Below, piece by piece: positions 20,240 to 47,187 of a stretch of DNA of 47,187 nucleotides; the first letter of the stretch is position 1, and the number at the start of each line of letters is the position of its first letter. The stretch is from a virus. The stretch lies in IMG/VR virus record IMGVR_UViG_3300027716_000003; one strand, 5' to 3'. Below the pieces are notes generated by a model, which worked only from the letters and a program-made list of their open reading frames with translations, was not told where the DNA came from and searched no databases. The position numbers were made by a program, and so were the translations under genes.

Positions 20240-21154
20240 ATGAGTGAGATTTTCACCAGCACCGCGGCGCTCGCGCTGAAGGACACGCTCGAGGACATCG
20301 ACACCGACGAGCACGGGTCCGAGGGCAGCAAGGCCGTCTTCAACAAGTGGTGCACCGTCAAGAACATGACGGACAACTACATCGAATATTACGAGATCGC
20401 CGGCGGCGGTCTCGCGGGTGAGAAGCCCGAGGGCGAGAGCATCCCGGTCGGGACCATCATCGAGGGCCCCCTCACTCGCTTCAACGCGCGCACCTTCGGT
20501 CAGCGAATGATCGTGAGCGAAGAGGCGATGGAGGACATGAAGTACGACAAGGTCATCCAGGCGGCGAAGCGCAACAATCGCTCGCTCTGGAAGCTCGTCG
20601 ACTTCGACGCGACCCTGATGCTGGTCCGCGCCACGAGCACGAGCTACGTCGGCGGCGACGGCCAGCCCCTCGCGAGCACGACCCACGTGCTGCCGGGCGG
20701 CGGCACGTACTCTAATATGTTCCCCTCGGCGCAGTTCTCCCCGAGCAAGGCCGCGCTCGTCATCGCGCAGGCGCAGCTCATGCAGCAGGTCGGCCACGAC
20801 GGGCTCATCGACGGCGTCGAAGCGAAGAAGGCCGTGTTCCCGGTGCAGCAGTGGGGGATCTGGCGCGAGCTGCTCGGTTCGAGCTACGACCCGACCCCGG
20901 GCGCGTTCAACGCGATCAACGTCGTCAACCGCGACATGAACCTGACGCCGGTTCCGGTGAAGTACTGGAACACGACCACGACGAACTGGGGCCTCATCAC
21001 CGATGCGGAGCTCGGCGTGATGTTCTTCTGGCGGCGCAAGCCCAAGAGCAACACGTGGGTCACCGAGGACAAGACGATGATGAACTACGGCATCACCGCG
21101 CGGTGGAGTCGTGGCTGGGTCAACCCGCGCGGCTTCTTCTTCTCGAACGCCTGA
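20240..21154 (+). CDS. Major capsid protein candidate (304 aa)
   Basis: Strong RBS GAGGAAG. Size and position fit the module. HK97 fold not verifiable by eye. Confidence 0.55.
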   Translation: MSEIFTSTAALALKDTLEDIDTDEHGSEGSKAVFNKWCTVKNMTDNYIEYYEIAGGGLAGEKPEGESIPVGTIIEGPLTRFNARTFGQRMIVSEEAMEDMKYDKVIQAAKRNNRSLWKLVDFDATLMLVRATSTSYVGGDGQPLASTTHVLPGGGTYSNMFPSAQFSPSKAALVIAQAQLMQQVGHDGLIDGVEAKKAVFPVQQWGIWRELLGSSYDPTPGAFNAINVVNRDMNLTPVPVKYWNTTTTNWGLITDAELGVMFFWRRKPKSNTWVTEDKTMMNYGITARWSRGWVNPRGFFFSNA

Positions 21155-41368: not shown

Positions 41369-41576
41369 GGTCGACCTGCCATTCGAGCACGACGCCCTGT
41401 TCCCCGACGGCGAACTCGTCGTCGAAGGGCGCCGGGTAGACGCCGATCGCCGCATCCGAGGGGATATGGATCCCCTTCGCCTGCGCGATCTCGACGAGCT
41501 CGCGCAGCAGGATGGTGACGGTGACCCTCGTCGTGGTCTTGGACTCGGCCTTCACACGCCACCGATCGCTTTCCAT
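41349..41576 (-). CDS. Hypothetical protein (75 aa)
   Basis: ORF track. Overlaps both neighbours by 20-25 nt. Confidence 0.45.
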   Translation of the reverse strand: MESDRWRVKAESKTTTRVTVTILLRELVEIAQAKGIHIPSDAAIGVYPAPFDDEFAVGEQGVVLEWQVDHAQKQG

Positions 41577-43300
41577 GCGGCGGACGCATCCCAGTCTTCA
41601 TCGTGCAGGTCGTCGCCCTTGTGCCAGAGCTCGAGCGCCGCGCCGAAGCGCATCGCCGCATTGCGCAGGGCATCTCCGATAATCTCCTTCTCGCGCGCGC
41701 CCGGGTCCTGCCCGTTCTTGCTCTGCGCGTTGCCGTAGCCGAGCCGCGTCACGCCGCAGACGGTGAGCTTGATCCAGAGACCGCCGGTCGCGTCGAAGAG
41801 CGGCAGCCCCTTCGGGTCGACGGCCATCGGCTCCCACGTCCACATGGGGTCGGCCTCGAGCAGCCTGTCGGTGAGCGCGGCGTGCCCGACGTAGTCGAGG
41901 TGAATGATGCGCGGGTGGTGCCAGCCGCCGCACACGTTGCAATTGCGCTTCTCGTTCGGCGGGCAGTTGTTCTGCTCCTTCGTGCCTTTCGGCAGCTTGC
42001 TAATCTGATGCTTCTCGAACGGGGCGCGCAGCAGGGCGAGCCCGCGCAAGTTGGCCTTGGCGGGCCCAGGCATGGCCAGGACGGGAGCCGGAGGATTGGG
42101 CACTGCACCGTTCTGTGTAGACGTGATGGTGCGCACGAATGGCGCAGCGGTCTGGGCGGCGCGGGGCTCGCCGAAAGGGATGAACTCCTCCCGCTTTGCC
42201 TTCCGCCACTCCTCCTCGCGCTTCTCCTCCTGCTCGTGCTGCTCGCGTGCCGCGCGGTCGGCGTTGCGCTCGCGCTCGTGCTCGGCACGGGCGGCCGCCT
42301 CCTGGCGCAGGAACTCGTCGGCGCGCGGGTCCTTGCCGATGAGGGGCTCACGCGGCACCGCCCCGCCGCGCGGCCCCTGCTCATACTCGGGCTTGCTCGC
42401 CTGGAAAGCGGGCTCCGCGTCTGCGGCGGCGGCGGCCGCGCTGAGCTCGTGCCGCGAGGGCTCGGGCATGGGCGTGGCGTTGCCCATGAAGCCGTCGAAC
42501 GCGAGCTCGACCTGGGGCGCCATCGTCTCGGCCACCTTCGGCTCGGCGCGCACGAGCAGGGCCTCGGCGTCGAGGTCGAGCTTCGTGTCGAGGGTCGTGA
42601 GCTTGAGCGACAAGACGAGCTGTTCCCAGTTCGCGCGCAGCGACTCCCACACCTTGCCCGAGCCGGTGGCGAGGTGCTCGGCGATGCCCGTCAGCGTCTT
42701 GTGCTCGCCGATGAGGCCGGCGGCTTTGACGGGGCCGATGCCCGGCACGCCCGGCACGTTGTCGCTCTTGTCGCCCGTGAGCGCCAGGAACAAGGGGATC
42801 TGCTCGGGGGTGACCTCGAACTTCTCCTTCACTTCCTTCGGGCCCCGGAAGTATTCGGCGCGCTCGCCGTGCTTGGGGACGAGCTGCAGCACGTTGTCGG
42901 TGACGCACTGAGCGAGATCCTTGTCGGCGCCGACGAGCCAGACCTCCGCCCAGCTCTCGCCGTAGATGCGGGCTAGCGTCGCGATGACGTCGTCGCCTTC
43001 CTTCCCCTTGACGCGCGCCATCGGGTAGCCGCGACTCTTGAGCGCGTCGTAGAGCCAGCGCTTCTGATAGATCTCGGTCGTCTCGGGCTCGACGCGGTTC
43101 GCCTTGTAGTCGGGGAATACTTCCTTGCGATCGTAGGGCGGGTAGTCGAGGCAGAGCACGACGCGGTCGACGCGGGCCGCGACTCGCTCAATCTCGGCGA
43201 GCGTGTTCTGTCCGCCGGCGTTGGGGTTCGCCTCGTAGGTGCGCTTGAAGAGGCAGCCGACGTCGACGAGGGCGATGGTCTTGTTCTGGGGCATGGTCAT
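41552..43300 (-). CDS. Fusion protein: FEN-type 5'-3' exonuclease (PIN+H3TH) + disordered linker + Rad52-like single-strand annealing domain
   Basis: N-terminal: LCLDYPPYDRKEVFPDYKANR, EGDDVIATLA, VGADKDLAQCV, ALTGDKSDNVPGVPGIGPVKAA. C-terminal: LDYVGHAALTDRL...WIKLTVCGVTRLGYG...KEIIGDALRNAAMRFGAALELW parallels the Rad52 core (YIEGH..I...N..FG..GW...V.V.L.DG..HEDVGYG...KEAVTD.LKRALR.FGNALG). Confidence 0.7.
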   Translation of the reverse strand: MTMPQNKTIALVDVGCLFKRTYEANPNAGGQNTLAEIERVAARVDRVVLCLDYPPYDRKEVFPDYKANRVEPETTEIYQKRWLYDALKSRGYPMARVKGKEGDDVIATLARIYGESWAEVWLVGADKDLAQCVTDNVLQLVPKHGERAEYFRGPKEVKEKFEVTPEQIPLFLALTGDKSDNVPGVPGIGPVKAAGLIGEHKTLTGIAEHLATGSGKVWESLRANWEQLVLSLKLTTLDTKLDLDAEALLVRAEPKVAETMAPQVELAFDGFMGNATPMPEPSRHELSAAAAAADAEPAFQASKPEYEQGPRGGAVPREPLIGKDPRADEFLRQEAAARAEHERERNADRAAREQHEQEEKREEEWRKAKREEFIPFGEPRAAQTAAPFVRTITSTQNGAVPNPPAPVLAMPGPAKANLRGLALLRAPFEKHQISKLPKGTKEQNNCPPNEKRNCNVCGGWHHPRIIHLDYVGHAALTDRLLEADPMWTWEPMAVDPKGLPLFDATGGLWIKLTVCGVTRLGYGNAQSKNGQDPGAREKEIIGDALRNAAMRFGAALELWHKGDDLHDEDWDASAAWKAIGGV

Positions 43301-44151: not shown

Positions 44152-45278
44152 GCGACCTCCGGGATGGCGCCGCCCGGCGGGACCGGGCCCCACTGCTCGA
44201 GCTGCTCGAGGGTGAGCCTGCCCGTCGGGTCGAAGCCCGCGCGCGCTTGTTTGGCGGCGACGGTGAGCCGCTCGCCGAGCACGTCGCGCCTCGACAGCGG
44301 GGCGGGCAAGGGCTGGGGGTGGTCAGCGAGCACACCTTTCAGCAGAGCCTCGAGCGGGAGCCCGTGCTTGGCCGCGAACGCCCTCTGGCGCGCGTCGGGC
44401 TCGAAGGGCTCCACCGGGAGCGCCGGGCCACGGAAGCCGCTCCTAGGGGCCGTAGCGGCGGAGCGTTGGGCATCCTTCGCCCGGTTCGTCTCCTCCCACG
44501 TTCGCCAGTTGCCGAACTGCTGCCTCACCCACTCGCGTTGATCGCGCACGCCCGACCGCCCGCCGATGCTGGCGAGGTTGCGAGCGGAGGCGAGGCGCTC
44601 GCGGAACCACTCGCGGCTCACGCCGGCGAGCACGGCTTCGTCCTCGAGCCCCGTCTCGTCGAGGCCTTCGAGGTCGTGGAAGCGGCGCACGACGGGGATG
44701 GTGTCGAGCTCTTCGTTATCGAAGCCCTCGCGCGCGGGAGGTACAACAACTTCAGAAGAGGGTTTGGGTTTAGGTTTCGGTTTAGGTGCGTCTACGGTTT
44801 CGCTACTCGCGTCTACGTGTGGACGGGTGTCGACGCGCTCACCGGTCGCGAGGAAGTGATCCTCGGCGTCGTACGGCAGCGGGCCGGTCTCCTCGGGGAA
44901 CGGCAAGGGCAGCTGCTTCGCGCGCTTCTGCTTGGCCCAGTTGCGCTTGCGTGCCTTCTCGGCCTCGCCCTTGGCGCGCTCGCGGTAGGCGACGAAGTTG
45001 ACGATGTGCCAGCCGCGCTCGACCTTGATCGCGCGACGCCCTTCGAAGTCGGGCGTCGAGGAGTAGGGGTCGGGGCTCTCGATGAGAGCGATGGCGGCCT
45101 TCGCCTGGTCGAGGGTGACGCCGGCCTGCTGCGCGACGCCGGGCACGGTGCCGACGACGAAGCCCTCGGGGTCGGCCATGAGCAGGAACCAAATCCAGAC
45201 GCAGCGCGTGGCCGGGTCAGCCGCCCACATGCTGCTCGTGAGGAAGTCGCGGAAGACGGGGGTGTAGGGATGCCTCAT
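44148..45278 (-). CDS. Replication initiation / replisome-organizer-like protein (376 aa)
   Basis: The N-terminal FRDFLTSSMWAADPATRCVWIWFLLMADPEGFV resembles the phage replisome-organizer N-domain. Central PKPKPKPKP linker. Position in the replication block. Confidence 0.45.
   Translation of the reverse strand: MRHPYTPVFRDFLTSSMWAADPATRCVWIWFLLMADPEGFVVGTVPGVAQQAGVTLDQAKAAIALIESPDPYSSTPDFEGRRAIKVERGWHIVNFVAYRERAKGEAEKARKRNWAKQKRAKQLPLPFPEETGPLPYDAEDHFLATGERVDTRPHVDASSETVDAPKPKPKPKPSSEVVVPPAREGFDNEELDTIPVVRRFHDLEGLDETGLEDEAVLAGVSREWFRERLASARNLASIGGRSGVRDQREWVRQQFGNWRTWEETNRAKDAQRSAATAPRSGFRGPALPVEPFEPDARQRAFAAKHGLPLEALLKGVLADHPQPLPAPLSRRDVLGERLTVAAKQARAGFDPTGRLTLEQLEQWGPVPPGGAIPEVA
44761..44837. 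promoter_or_regulatory. Candidate origin region inside the organizer gene: (GGTTTN)x4 followed by GCGTCTACG, GCGTCTACGTGTGGACG and GGTGTCGACGCG
   Basis: Read directly. The 17-mer is 16/17 identical and the 12-mer 12/12 identical to modules at 1009-1047. Confidence 0.4.
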
Positions 45279-45481
45279 CGGGTGGCCCCCTCCGGGGGGC
45301 GCTCGCCGGGTTCGAAGTCGACGAACTGGAAGAGCTGGCGCGCGATCCATGGGTTCTGGCGGAGCTTCTCGAGCGCGCGGTGTTCGAGCTGCTTGACGCG
45401 GTTGGTGGAGATGTGGAGGGCCTTGGCGATCTCGCGCACGGTCATCCCGTCGCGCCGCAGCCAGTCGTGCGCGGTGCTCAC
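45275..45481 (-). CDS. Sigma-70 region 4 / LuxR-type HTH-only protein (68 aa)
   Basis: MTVREIAKALHISTNRVKQLEHRALEKLR matches the region 4.2 pattern. GTGA-coupled start; ATGA-coupled to the organizer gene. Confidence 0.6.
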   Translation of the reverse strand: MSTAHDWLRRDGMTVREIAKALHISTNRVKQLEHRALEKLRQNPWIARQLFQFVDFEPGERPPEGATR

Positions 45482-45681
45482 ATGCCCTCCGGCAGGGGCA
45501 AACCATCCTCCGGCAGGGGCAAACCATCCAGCCTAGCGAGCAGAGTCTCGGCGTGCCGGCGCAGCTCGTCGTTGCTCTGGCGCAGCTCGGCGACCTGCTC
45601 GCGCAGCGCGGTGATGGTGTCGCGCATGACGGCGATGGTGTCGTCGGTGTAGGTGCTTTCGGTTCGGCTGAACTCGGTCAT
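45478..45681 (-). CDS. Coiled-coil protein (67 aa) with duplicated DGLPLPE C-terminus
   Basis: ATGA overlap with the int stop. Helical sequence ALREQVAELRQSNDELRRHAETLLARL. Confidence 0.5.
   Translation of the reverse strand: MTEFSRTESTYTDDTIAVMRDTITALREQVAELRQSNDELRRHAETLLARLDGLPLPEDGLPLPEGM
45488..45529. repeat. Perfect 21-nt tandem duplication TCCGGCAGGGGCAAACCATCC x2
   Basis: Read directly, at 45488-45508 and 45509-45529. Confidence 0.9.
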
Positions 45682-47187
45682 GACTTCCTCCGGCGGGCGT
45701 CGAGTGAGGAGACGTTGTCGGGGGCTACCGCACGTCGGCGCTTGGCGACCTCCAAGAGGGCCGTGGCGGAGTCGAGATCGCCCTCGCTCATCGCCAGGCG
45801 CACGGCGAGCTCGAGGGCCTCGTCGAGGCTGCCGAGTAATGGCCGGGAGTTCTGGCCGGCGGCAGTCGCACCGAGTGGTTTGGCGTCGTTTTCGAGGTCA
45901 CCCGAAACGACTCTTCCATGCGAAAACCCCTTAAAAACAGCTTCGGTCTTGGACTCCGAAGCCAAGGGTCGAAGGTTCGAATCCTTCCGGGCGCGCAGCG
46001 ATATCATTGAGCTTTCTCCTTCCTTGGATACTTTCTCAGACCGAGTTTCGGCCGAGAGCTGGCCAATATTCGGTGAGCCGAAGGTGCTCGCTGGGTGAGC
46101 AGAAGGGGCGATGGTCATCACCTGGCGCTCACCTTCCCGCGACTGACCCGAGGGCAAGAGTCTGCTCGGCACCGCCCCCGCCGGCACCGCGAGCGCCTCC
46201 GTCGGGTTCTGCAGATAGCGGCCGTGGGCGCGCAAGTCGGAGGCGTGCCCCGTCAAGGCCGCGCTCGTCTGCACGTTGACCCCCGCCTTGCCGAGCGCCT
46301 GGCTCCACGCCCGTCGCCAAGAGTGGAAGTCGACGGGCAGCGTGTACTTCGTCTCCTCGAACAGCTCCCGCTCCTTACCCGTCATCGGGCGACCCGGCAC
46401 CCAGCGGCCGACGGGGCCCCTCTGCCCGCGGCCGGCGTCTGGGTCCCAGCGCTCGATACCGAGCGCGCGCCGGAGGTCCTGGCGCATCGCGTGGGCGTGG
46501 CTGTCCTGCGTCTCGCGCAGGCCGCCGGCGCTCTCTCCCCGGAGCAGCGGGAACACCGGACCCTTGCGGGGCCGCCCCTGGTGCACCCACCAGCGATAGA
46601 CGACCGGAGCGAGCCCCTCGGGCACCTCCATGCGCTGGGGCGCCGCGCCCTTCGTGCGGGGCACCCACGCCTCGGCGAACGAGGGCTCTCCGCTCGCGTC
46701 CTCGTCGAGCAGAAAGTTATCCTCCCAGGTCGCGACGTGCAGATCGTTGGTGCGCTCGCCGCCGAGGCAGCGCGCGATGCAGCTCATCGTCTGGCGCATG
46801 AGCACCCCGACGCGGTGCCGGGGCACGGGGTGCTGCCAGGCGAGATACGCGAGCAGGACCTCGTCGCGCGCCACGGCCCGCGTCTTGTCGAGCGTCGCCT
46901 TGAAGAGCGGCATCCGCGCCTTCGGATCGTCCATGGTGGCGAGCCCCGCGCTCTCGAACGTGAACTTGAGCGCCTTTCGGAGATGCTTCACGTGGTCGTC
47001 CGAGTAGCCCCGGCTGCGCTGATCCTCGAGCAGCGCCTTCACTTCGTCCGGGGTGATGGCCGCGATGGGGCGCGCTCCGAATGGCAGTGGGTGGCTCTCG
47101 GTCACGAAGGGGTAGGCGTGGTTTCGAAGGCGCCCCTCCTCGATGTCGACGCGCGAGACCTGGCGCGCCTCTCGCGCTCGGAGCGCG
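45678..47187 (-). CDS. int: Tyrosine integrase, main part (N-terminus continues at 335..1); carries a 178-aa extension after the catalytic Tyr
   Basis: R (GGERTNDL), HSWRR, TGH and HGRYLQ, with the Tyr codon at 46215-46217. The ORF continues to 45678 through the tRNA-like attP core. Confidence 0.9.
   Translation of the reverse strand, partial: ALRAREARQVSRVDIEEGRLRNHAYPFVTESHPLPFGARPIAAITPDEVKALLEDQRSRGYSDDHVKHLRKALKFTFESAGLATMDDPKARMPLFKATLDKTRAVARDEVLLAYLAWQHPVPRHRVGVLMRQTMSCIARCLGGERTNDLHVATWEDNFLLDEDASGEPSFAEAWVPRTKGAAPQRMEVPEGLAPVVYRWWVHQGRPRKGPVFPLLRGESAGGLRETQDSHAHAMRQDLRRALGIERWDPDAGRGQRGPVGRWVPGRPMTGKERELFEETKYTLPVDFHSWRRAWSQALGKAGVNVQTSAALTGHASDLRAHGRYLQNPTEALAVPAGAVPSRLLPSGQSREGERQVMTIAPSAHPASTFGSPNIGQLSAETRSEKVSKEGESSMISLRARKDSNLRPLASESKTEAVFKGFSHGRVVSGDLENDAKPLGATAAGQNSRPLLGSLDEALELAVRLAMSEGDLDSATALLEVAKRRRAVAPDNVSSLDARRRKS
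45949..45995 (+). other. attP core candidate: 3' portion of a tRNA-Arg(CCG)-like sequence (anticodon arm to discriminator), antisense inside int
   Basis: TTGGA/CTCCGAA/GCCAA anticodon arm (anticodon CCG; the 31-39 pair is mismatched), variable GGGTC, T-arm GAAGG-TTCGAAT-CCTTC, and acceptor CGGGCGC plus G. No D-arm and no 5' acceptor GCGCCCG upstream. Confidence 0.7.
47089..47187. repeat. Terminal direct repeat, copy 2 (identical to 1..99)
   Basis: Base-by-base comparison. Confidence 0.95.

Follow-up and report, generated by a model that had tools for sequence, protein, structure and literature searches.

Why should the integrase gene of a phage run without a stop codon through part of a tRNA gene that lies on the opposite strand? 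The question is raised by IMG/VR virus record IMGVR_UViG_3300027716_000003, a stretch of 47,187 nucleotides (called the window here, always at its full length), in which the integrase gene int on the minus strand reads across the 3' part of a tRNA-Arg(CCG) on the plus strand. An earlier note on this DNA, made from its letters, had proposed that the tRNA fragment is the core of a phage attachment site (attP) lying inside int, in the manner of the myxophage Mx8. The reading preferred here, at a probability of roughly 85%, is that positions 45954-45995 are the attP core of a temperate phage of Polyangia, myxobacteria of the soil, and copy a host tRNA-Arg(CCG), that attP lies wholly inside int, and that the C-terminus of the integrase (Int) is exchanged on integration. 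The proposal is supported by a 42-mer shared among phages, by a reading frame under selection, and by the separation of int from its tail in integrated relatives.

The tRNA fragment occupies 45949-45995 on the plus strand, antisense to int, and can be read as an anticodon arm (TTGGA-CTCCGAA-GCCAA, anticodon CCG), a variable loop (GGGTC), a T arm (GAAGG-TTCGAAT-CCTTC), the 3' acceptor strand (CGGGCGC) and the discriminator base (G). ARAGORN reports no complete tRNA in the window and the Rfam tRNA model aligns over positions 9-63 of 71 only (17.8 bits, E 0.67), so the segment is a 3' fragment without D arm or 5' acceptor strand, as the earlier note had also read it. Dozens of genuine metagenomic tRNA-Arg genes have 3' ends identical to its 29 nt at 45967-45995, and ARAGORN identifies several of them as tRNA-Arg(CCG); judged by this identity, the resemblance is not a matter of chance. 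The common core, expected to be identical in attP, attB, attL and attR, is the 42-mer CTCCGAAGCCAAGGGTCGAAGGTTCGAATCCTTCCGGGCGCG at 45954-45995 (tRNA positions 32-73). The exact 42-mer is present in three independent phages, namely that of the window together with L002, L005/L006 from a bin of metagenome-assembled genomes (MAGs) at NCBI, and L044 from a JGI metagenome (L and P numbers denote loci and proteins), and the three diverge immediately on either side of it. On the left, identity begins at C32, the base with which the anticodon loop opens, both in these phages and in the repeat of two integrated elements described below (L103/L125). The conserved fragment is the attP core that had been suspected, with its identity block beginning at 45954 (C32) rather than at 45949. 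In a sister group (L004, L077, L080) the core differs only in the T stem, where GAAGG/CCTTC is replaced by GGTGG/CCACC; the change is compensatory, as expected of copies taken from the tRNAs of different hosts.

The putative core recombination site (45949-45965, plus strand) is an imperfect inverted repeat, TTGG(A)/GCCAA, formed by the anticodon stem around a 7-nt loop. The TTGG of the 5' stem strand is retained by the phage, which leaves TTGG-N9-CCAA around the anticodon loop CTCCGAA (45954-45960); this would be the standard arrangement for a core site and its overlap region. The anticodon loop is the likely region of strand exchange, a placement that follows from general knowledge of tRNA-targeting tyrosine integrases.

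The int open reading frame (ORF) occupies 45678-47187 on the minus strand and encodes a tyrosine recombinase; the window edge removes the start of the protein. The frame is uninterrupted from that edge (47186) to the stop codon at 45680-45678 and reads ...SLRARKDSNLRPLASESK... across the tRNA fragment, the fragment itself being translated as RARKDSNLRPLASESK. The complete protein is P0001, 581 amino acids long and 100% identical, from a contig of 47,722 nt; the window is without its first 79 residues. The codon of the catalytic tyrosine, Tyr403 in the motif HGRYLQ, lies at 46215-46217, which by translation and alignment is 178 codons before the stop, and 89 residues follow the K of ASESK before the protein ends. 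The coordinates and counts given in the earlier note are all correct. In an alignment of 27 sequences (A1), R224, K258, H367, R370 and Y403 never vary and at least 90% of the sequences have H393, so that the catalytic residues R-K-H-R-H/W-Y appear in the order of tyrosine recombinases. All of them are encoded upstream of the core, and the integrated form retains a complete catalytic domain.

An AlphaFold2 model of Int has a mean predicted local distance difference test (pLDDT) score of 71.7, with 80-92 in the domains, and its N-terminal beta, core-binding and catalytic domains are confident. Foldseek matches the model to Cre, full-length lambda Int, IntI, XerA and Tn1549 Int (top 30 with E of about 1e-6 to 1e-5), and model and matches agree in having the two-domain fold, core-binding and catalytic, of tyrosine recombinases. 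PF00589 scores 18.2 bits for the window Int, below its gathering cut-off of 27.1, and P0001 belongs to no PHROG family and no NCBIfam family; several relatives have precomputed matches to PF00589 or PF22022. By sequence, Int is a very divergent lineage of tyrosine recombinases.

The GC content at third codon positions (GC3) in the int frame is about 0.9 down to 46107, falls to 0.53-0.63 at 46106-45837 and rises to 0.97 at 45836-45747, the pattern of an att-sized non-coding-like stretch after which the same frame resumes as a clearly coding tail. The int frame has no start codon between 45965 and 45803. About 30 homologs of 540-590 amino acids (45-83% identical) cover 97-100% of P0001, tail included, and the 21 long homologs that were aligned all retain the tRNA-derived motif and the tail. 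Among more distant IMG/VR relatives (28-57% identical), int extends well past the catalytic tyrosine in 12 of 13 and in most reads through the peptide encoded by the antisense tRNA; one relative, L082, has an early stop in int, and the extension is not universal. In the linker of 16 diverse free-phage loci, with a GC content of 54-66%, there are no stops in the int frame versus 43 and 54 in the other two frames, and the probability that shuffling leaves the int frame open is 0.003-0.17 per locus. Insertions and deletions in the linker preserve the frame throughout alignment A1. Because int-frame stops are absent while the other frames have many, and because the shuffled probabilities are low, the frame across the att region is concluded to be under selection. 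The earlier note had allowed for a sequencing artefact, to be betrayed by relatives with a stop soon after the tyrosine; only L082 has one, and on the comparisons made here the read-through is neither an artefact nor an accident of high GC content.

The integrated state has been observed in relatives. A family-profile scan of 185,579 species-representative genomes gave 106 relatives, 80 of which were listed, and all of those listed are in MAGs of Myxococcota (Polyangiaceae, Polyangiales, "Myxococcales" and Nannocystis), the phylum in which hosts had been predicted. About 48 of the 80 have, at 0-150 nt past the catalytic domain, a complete tRNA encoded on the other strand; the targets include tRNAs for Arg (CCG, TCG, TCT, ACG, CCT), Pro, Gly, Val, Asp, Met, Asn, His and Phe. 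For example, on a 3.48-Mb Polyangiaceae contig (L001/L104) a 454-amino-acid Int terminates within a complete tRNA-Arg(CCG), and cellular-type genes (Lactamase_B, PilZ and a protein kinase) lie beyond the tRNA. Both att ends were found in five loci (L110, L119, L135, L163 and L175) as exact direct repeats of 35-47 nt reaching the tRNA 3' end or a little beyond; the repeats in L119 and in L103/L125 begin in or beside the anticodon loop. L119 (8.5 kb) and L163 (4.8 kb), both in a tRNA-Arg(CCG), carry a truncated int at one boundary and the tail at the opposite one, where a hidden Markov model (HMM) of the tail matches an ORF spanning the distal repeat. Excision of these two elements in silico gives in-frame int-tail ORFs of 561 and 543 amino acids, the tails of which match the HMM. 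In the integrated state their int genes stop at ...PEA[DV]ALSS* inside the tRNA. The end ...ALSS* is common to three loci in tRNA-Arg(CCG), L119 (11267-11343), L163 (6269-6343) and L001 (7301-7376), and its TGA is the antisense of the conserved tRNA D-arm sequence GCTCAGCTGGATAGAGC.

Two further loci bear on the junctions. L093 is an attR-type junction in which the tail is followed by a tRNA-Lys 3' fragment and then by a host-like gene, probably that of a host lipoprotein; it is the only true-looking attR among the loci found through tail proteins. On contig CAWIGY010000035.1 two elements lie in tandem at one tRNA-Arg(CCG) (L103, 2667-2706, and L125, 11229-11303) with a shared repeat of 44 nt that starts at C32, and the upstream int crosses the shared core and stops 9 codons after it, inside the second element. 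The int beside the tRNA is apparently a pseudogene, its ORF being broken after 226 amino acids. The earlier note had looked to prophage junctions to settle the matter: in relatives int does end in the tRNA and the tail is found at the other end, and none was found for the phage of the window.

These observations suggest the following sequence of events. In the free or circularised phage, int would stand third in a long early operon whose genes are coupled in translation, downstream of the gene for a 92-amino-acid candidate excisionase, and encode the full Int of 581 amino acids. Int would recombine attP with the tRNA gene, probably in the anticodon loop. At one junction an intact tRNA would be regenerated with its 3' part supplied by the phage, the expected joint being that of the tRNA 5' half ...GCTCAGCTGGATAGAGCG-TTGGC with CTCCGAA.... 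The int of the prophage would retain residues 1-490 (...RPLASE) and then read antisense into the host half of the tRNA, where the D-arm TGA would stop it a few codons on, as in silico in relatives; with a host D arm of the family consensus, about six host-encoded residues, (A-N-)A-L-S-S-stop, would replace residues 491-581. The earlier expectation that the C-terminal tail is what integration exchanges is supported, with the boundary corrected to these 91 residues. The 91-residue tail segment and the downstream early genes would be left at the opposite junction, at a distance of about 47 kb and separated from int and the promoter, and excision would restore the full gene. The changed C-terminus is expected to alter the activity or directionality of the integrase between the free and integrated states, by analogy with Mx8 IntP and IntX.

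The attachment site would be much larger than its core. A region of attP size with non-coding-like composition (45837-46106) is translated as a variable, disordered linker of about residues 421-526; pLDDT in this translated attP is about 30, and it is hypervariable and rich in insertions and deletions in alignment A1. The attP itself is estimated at about 230-270 bp, comprising the core and repeated candidate arm motifs GAGTnnnGGCCG on both sides, wholly within the 3' third of int. Two tandem candidate arm-type Int-binding sites, GAGTAATGGCCG and GAGTTCTGGCCG, lie on the tail side of the core (45834-45858, plus strand) and encode the conserved peptide GQNSRPLL, in which the conservation of GQNSRP may reflect constraint at the DNA level. 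A third candidate copy, GAGTTTCGGCCG, lies on the int side (46043-46054, plus strand) and belongs to an imperfect palindrome, TTCGGCCGAGAGCTGGCCAA, that recurs in relatives; a TTGGCC...GGCCAA palindrome is found at equivalent positions in six of them. The motif GAGTNNNGGCCG has four copies in the 47 kb of the window versus 1.17 expected, and three of the four (at 45834, 45847 and 46043) are within 220 bp around the core, making them candidate arm-type sites. It replaced an initial candidate, WTNTGGCCR, that is not enriched (1 match versus 3.6 expected). Similar tandem repeats occur at the equivalent place in L004, L005, L044, L077, L080 and L081. Directly beside the tRNA 3' end, six phages keep the DNA motif CGATATCATT (45999-46008, plus strand) even though they translate it in one or the other of two frames (SMIS or NDIE), and conservation independent of frame points to constraint on the DNA, that is, to a protein-binding site in attP.

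Beyond attP, the C-terminal tail of Int (residues 528-581; 45681-45842, minus strand) consists of a two-helix hairpin (533-546 and 550-564) followed by PDNVxSLDAxRRKS. Its GC3 is 0.97 and its AlphaFold2 pLDDT 81-89, with the hairpin at 533-564 confident. The tail HMM matches all long-form relatives as well as the attR ends of L119 and L163. No meaningful relatives of the tail were found in Pfam or the Protein Data Bank, where only designed helical repeats matched. Two small genes on the minus strand (45275-45681) are translationally coupled to the end of int: a gene for a 67-amino-acid protein starts by overlapping the int stop (ATGA at 45681-45678), and one for a 68-amino-acid protein with a helix-turn-helix (HTH) of the sigma-70 region 4 type starts in a GTGA overlap at 45481-45478. 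The overlaps continue through the early genes after int, which include, besides these two, a 376-amino-acid protein and others. The 3' end of the 67-amino-acid gene has a perfect 21-nt tandem duplication (cctccggcaggggcaaaccat, twice) at 45487-45530 and accordingly a repeated DGLPLPE C-terminus.

Several results weigh against this interpretation and have to be set beside it. The exact 42-mer has 0 matches in a host tRNA-Arg among the species-representative genomes scanned, and the 69 metagenome loci with the 29-mer include none with the anticodon arm of the window or the full 42-mer; the closest complete tRNA found (L043) differs from the core at 3 of 42 positions. The host tRNA-Arg(CCG) equal to 45954-45995 that the earlier note predicted was thus not found in genomes or metagenome loci, and neither was a lysogen of the window phage or of a close relative (Int more than 60% identical). 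The host probably belongs to an unsampled lineage of Polyangia, and the case for integration of the window phage itself is made through its relatives. The cases with paired attL and attR are small elements whose Int is only about 29-38% identical to that of the window, and the arm-type sites and strand-exchange position are putative assignments from patterns in the sequence. The tail is under moderate constraint only, with a ratio of nonsynonymous to synonymous substitution rates (dN/dS) of mostly 0.3-0.7. It also travels with the downstream genes and not with the catalytic domain, as the comparison with L078 indicates: window and L078 are 93% identical in nucleotide sequence over the tail and downstream early genes, from 45854 leftwards (45854-44175), and the Int of L078 is of another subtype, about 30% identical, with a different core that does not look like a tRNA. 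The similarity breaks at 45854, inside the left arm of attP, which marks a mosaic boundary, and the same tail is fused to two Int subfamilies that are about 30% identical. L086, L088 and L092 also begin to match the window at this break point (45854-45862).

How far do these points favour other explanations of the locus? In a genome of 68% GC spurious ORFs are frequent (175 of at least 100 amino acids in 47 kb), and Int might end soon after the tyrosine, with attP in a spacer that happens to be open and the tail a separate small gene; the non-coding-like composition of the att region and the predicted disorder of the linker would suit such an arrangement. The linker, however, has a GC content of only 54-66% and still lacks int-frame stops in all 16 loci, its insertions and deletions keep the frame, no in-frame start precedes the tail between 45965 and 45803, and in-silico excision of L119 and L163 restores the same frame, so that an accident of composition is very improbable. 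It is still harder to believe that some past imprecise excision or recombination left the tRNA fragment behind as a relic and that the active attP lies elsewhere. The missing host tRNA would fit a relic, as would position 31 (A at 45953), which breaks the anticodon stem; yet a mismatch just outside the identity block is what would be expected at the boundary of an attP, the 42-mer is unchanged in three otherwise diverged phages, the position of the fragment relative to int matches that of the att repeats in lysogens of relatives, and arm-like repeats lie on either side of it.

The remaining alternatives accept the attachment site and concern what the open frame and the tail are for. The frame might be kept for operon continuity: ribosomes would cross the attP of about 270 bp, which would avoid polarity and couple the early genes, the fusion of the tail to Int would be incidental, and the helical hairpin would work with the downstream genes, integration still splitting the operon. 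The ATGA overlap at the int stop and the further overlaps down the operon agree with this, as do the L078 comparison, the single tail shared by two Int subfamilies and the moderate constraint. On the other hand, fusion of the tail is constant in phages of the attP form, and no tail was found that stands alone as a gene with a start codon of its own. A helical segment and an NVxSL...R-rich terminus also close the proteins of very distant members that target other tRNAs, and a C-terminal exchange in Mx8 reportedly changes integrase activity (summarised in PMC6070905); this explanation is considered unlikely, though deserving of attention. A good deal less likely is that translation from an internal ATG at 46007-46005 yields the tail as a separate protein of about 109 amino acids, whether in addition to the fused form or as its main form, a product that integration would likewise abolish. 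That ATG is just outside the core and in the int frame, with a strong near-consensus Shine-Dalgarno sequence, AAGGAGA, about 7 nt upstream (window 46005-46026), and the SSMIS context also occurs in P0002, P0003, P0015 and P0023. Most family members, by contrast, have NDIE here and no methionine, and since the CGATATCATT DNA is conserved in any frame, the ATG may simply belong to the DNA site; because the ATG is not conserved, an internal start for the tail was judged unlikely. An Int with an exchangeable C-terminus remains the preferred reading, and within it a regulatory C-terminus, expected by analogy with Mx8, is one view of the tail beside operon continuity. A more speculative extension, offered tentatively, is that the helical tail is a portable "integration-state" module that is always fused across attP to whichever Int lies upstream and that integration would physically take away. 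The free or integrated state would then be read out twice, through the Int C-terminus (its directionality or activity, possibly together with the 67-amino-acid and HTH proteins) and through the link of the early operon to its promoter.

Other features of the phage and its relatives have been recorded alongside. The window phage has no relative among the GenBank phages of INPHARED, either by blastn of 45000-47187 or by tblastn of Int, P0001 in particular having no tblastn match in 50,697 phage records. Pfam searches of ten large window ORFs recognise only a capsid protein (PF25209) and a 5'-3' exonuclease; the regions cited for these two are 20240-21154 and 41552-43300. Several metagenomes and MAG bins contain contigs of 42-52 kb related to the window phage. 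The same int design is found in small integrated elements of 4.8-11 kb (L119, L163, L110, L135 and L175), which lie between tRNA 3' repeats; the tail is confirmed in L119 and L163. L119 (2723-11313 in Polyangiaceae MAG JAFGIS010000511.1) encodes a D5_N/DUF5906 primase-helicase and an HTH_17 protein and resembles a phage satellite or a small integrative element more than a complete prophage.

In L007 (11880-13319 of IMGVR_UViG_3300046656_000389) another integrase, of the ...LLGH...Y type, also crosses a 3' fragment of tRNA-Arg(CCG) whose last 29 nt are the same, giving the peptide RARKDSNLRPTAPEA; it looks unrelated to the window Int. L025 and L041 are more distant family members beside fragment-type copies of the 29-mer. 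In L095, two direct copies of CGTCAGTGCGAAGGAGAGGACTTGA[GA]CC (51-80 and 188-217), 137 nt apart, lie upstream of the tail-like ORF P0059, itself distant; the copies may be att-related or tRNA-derived. Public gene calls are misleading at P0032-P0035, P0039 and P0051-P0057, where the int products of prophages contain translated antisense tRNA (...DSNLRHPACKASALPTELPA), and some long-form genes have had their tails annotated as small "hypothetical proteins" in their own right. The "orphan tail" proteins P0051-P0057 were considered as evidence for attR and rejected, since they proved to be long-form genes that a contig end had cut short or a gene caller had divided.

The literature search found no description of this integrase family or of an attP-in-int architecture in Polyangia. 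Genes that span attP are the rule in a large, separate, Polyangia-specific integrase family of phages and satellite-like elements, with 106 matches in Myxococcota genomes, about 30 free-phage contigs and at least 15 different tRNA targets, while the concept of an integrase that rewrites the end of its own gene ("reversible covalent modification") has so far rested essentially on Mx8, with Mx9. The family also suggests that a whole attP, both core and candidate arm sites, can be encoded in a translated, disordered protein linker. Such loci are mis-annotated by gene callers and island finders, with split tail "genes" and antisense-tRNA peptides as the result, and the int ORF itself allows the limits of prophages in Polyangia MAGs to be predicted. 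The int-attP cassettes are candidate integration tools for Polyangia (Sorangium-type producers), as Mx8 int-attP is for Myxococcus. If the tail were indeed an integration-state module, translation across attP would be a general lysogeny switch in Polyangia phages and satellites, beyond Mx8.

The locus can be compared with several known systems. In the mycobacteriophages BPs and Brujita, attP reportedly lies in the repressor gene and integration is said to remove a C-terminal degradation tag from the repressor. The window phage resembles this integration-dependent immunity in having attP in a coding sequence and the integration state written into a protein C-terminus, and the structure of Brujita Int is among the Foldseek matches of the window Int. 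The attP of the window, in contrast, is in int and not in a repressor gene, its candidate repressors (of the LexA_DNA_bind type) are encoded by genes separate from int, and the tail is a folded hairpin ending in RRRKS, unlike an ssrA-like tag. Integration of the SSV type, known from archaeal fuselloviruses, splits int in two and disrupts the gene. The window phage differs in that its Int keeps the whole catalytic domain, only a C-terminal appendage being exchanged, and in belonging to another domain of life; the two types share an attP in the int ORF, a tRNA target and an int altered, or in the window phage predicted to be altered, by integration (PMC4383910). Ordinary tRNA integrases (P4, P22, HP1 and genomic islands; the classes of Williams 2002) also have an identity block from the anticodon loop to the tRNA 3' end, and they too have an element that restores the 3' part of the tRNA and an int beside attL converging on the tRNA. 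Their genes stop before attP, whereas the window ORF extends over the core and the two arms and adds another domain.

The closest parallel is Mx8. Its integration reportedly converts IntP to IntX, the C-terminal exchange is said to change the activity of the integrase, and Mx9 reportedly has its attP within int as well. In the Mx8 records (GenBank D86464, NC_003085), the 29-bp attP core (2387-2415 of D86464) and six repeats (2315-2632) lie within intP (1154-2755), the core 113 codons before the stop. Integration of Mx8 makes a new 3' end of int and changes the specificity of the enzyme for attachment sites, and Mx9 integrates on a similar principle, by recombination between the phage and host attachment sites (PMC6070905). 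Because the integrases of Mx8 and SSV extend across attP (PMC4383910, the Islander paper), the architecture was already known. The window phage and Mx8 have in common an attP core with flanking repeats in the 3' part of int, downstream of the catalytic tyrosine, a core antisense to the 3' segment of a tRNA (of the host in Mx8 and probably also in the window phage), an Int C-terminus that is exchanged on integration, or would be in the window phage, and a myxobacterial host, predicted in the case of the window (PMC6070905). They differ in the core (29 bp and 113 codons before the stop in Mx8; 42 bp with 91 codons after it in the window), in the target (tRNA-Asp versus tRNA-Arg(CCG)) and in the hosts (Myxococcus versus Polyangia for the window family). 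The proteins are also far apart: Mx8 IntP has no BLASTP match to the window Int (E >1), hhalign relates the two at 91% probability over residues 36-292, the N-terminal half only, and the profile comparison of the tails gives 0.3% probability, that is, unrelated tails. The earlier comparison with Mx8 therefore stands for the architecture and not for a close relationship between the integrases. The tail of the window Int, unlike that of Mx8, is a conserved helical hairpin common to a large family and to two Int subfamilies; by these comparisons, what the phage shares with Mx8 is the architecture and not the protein subfamily.

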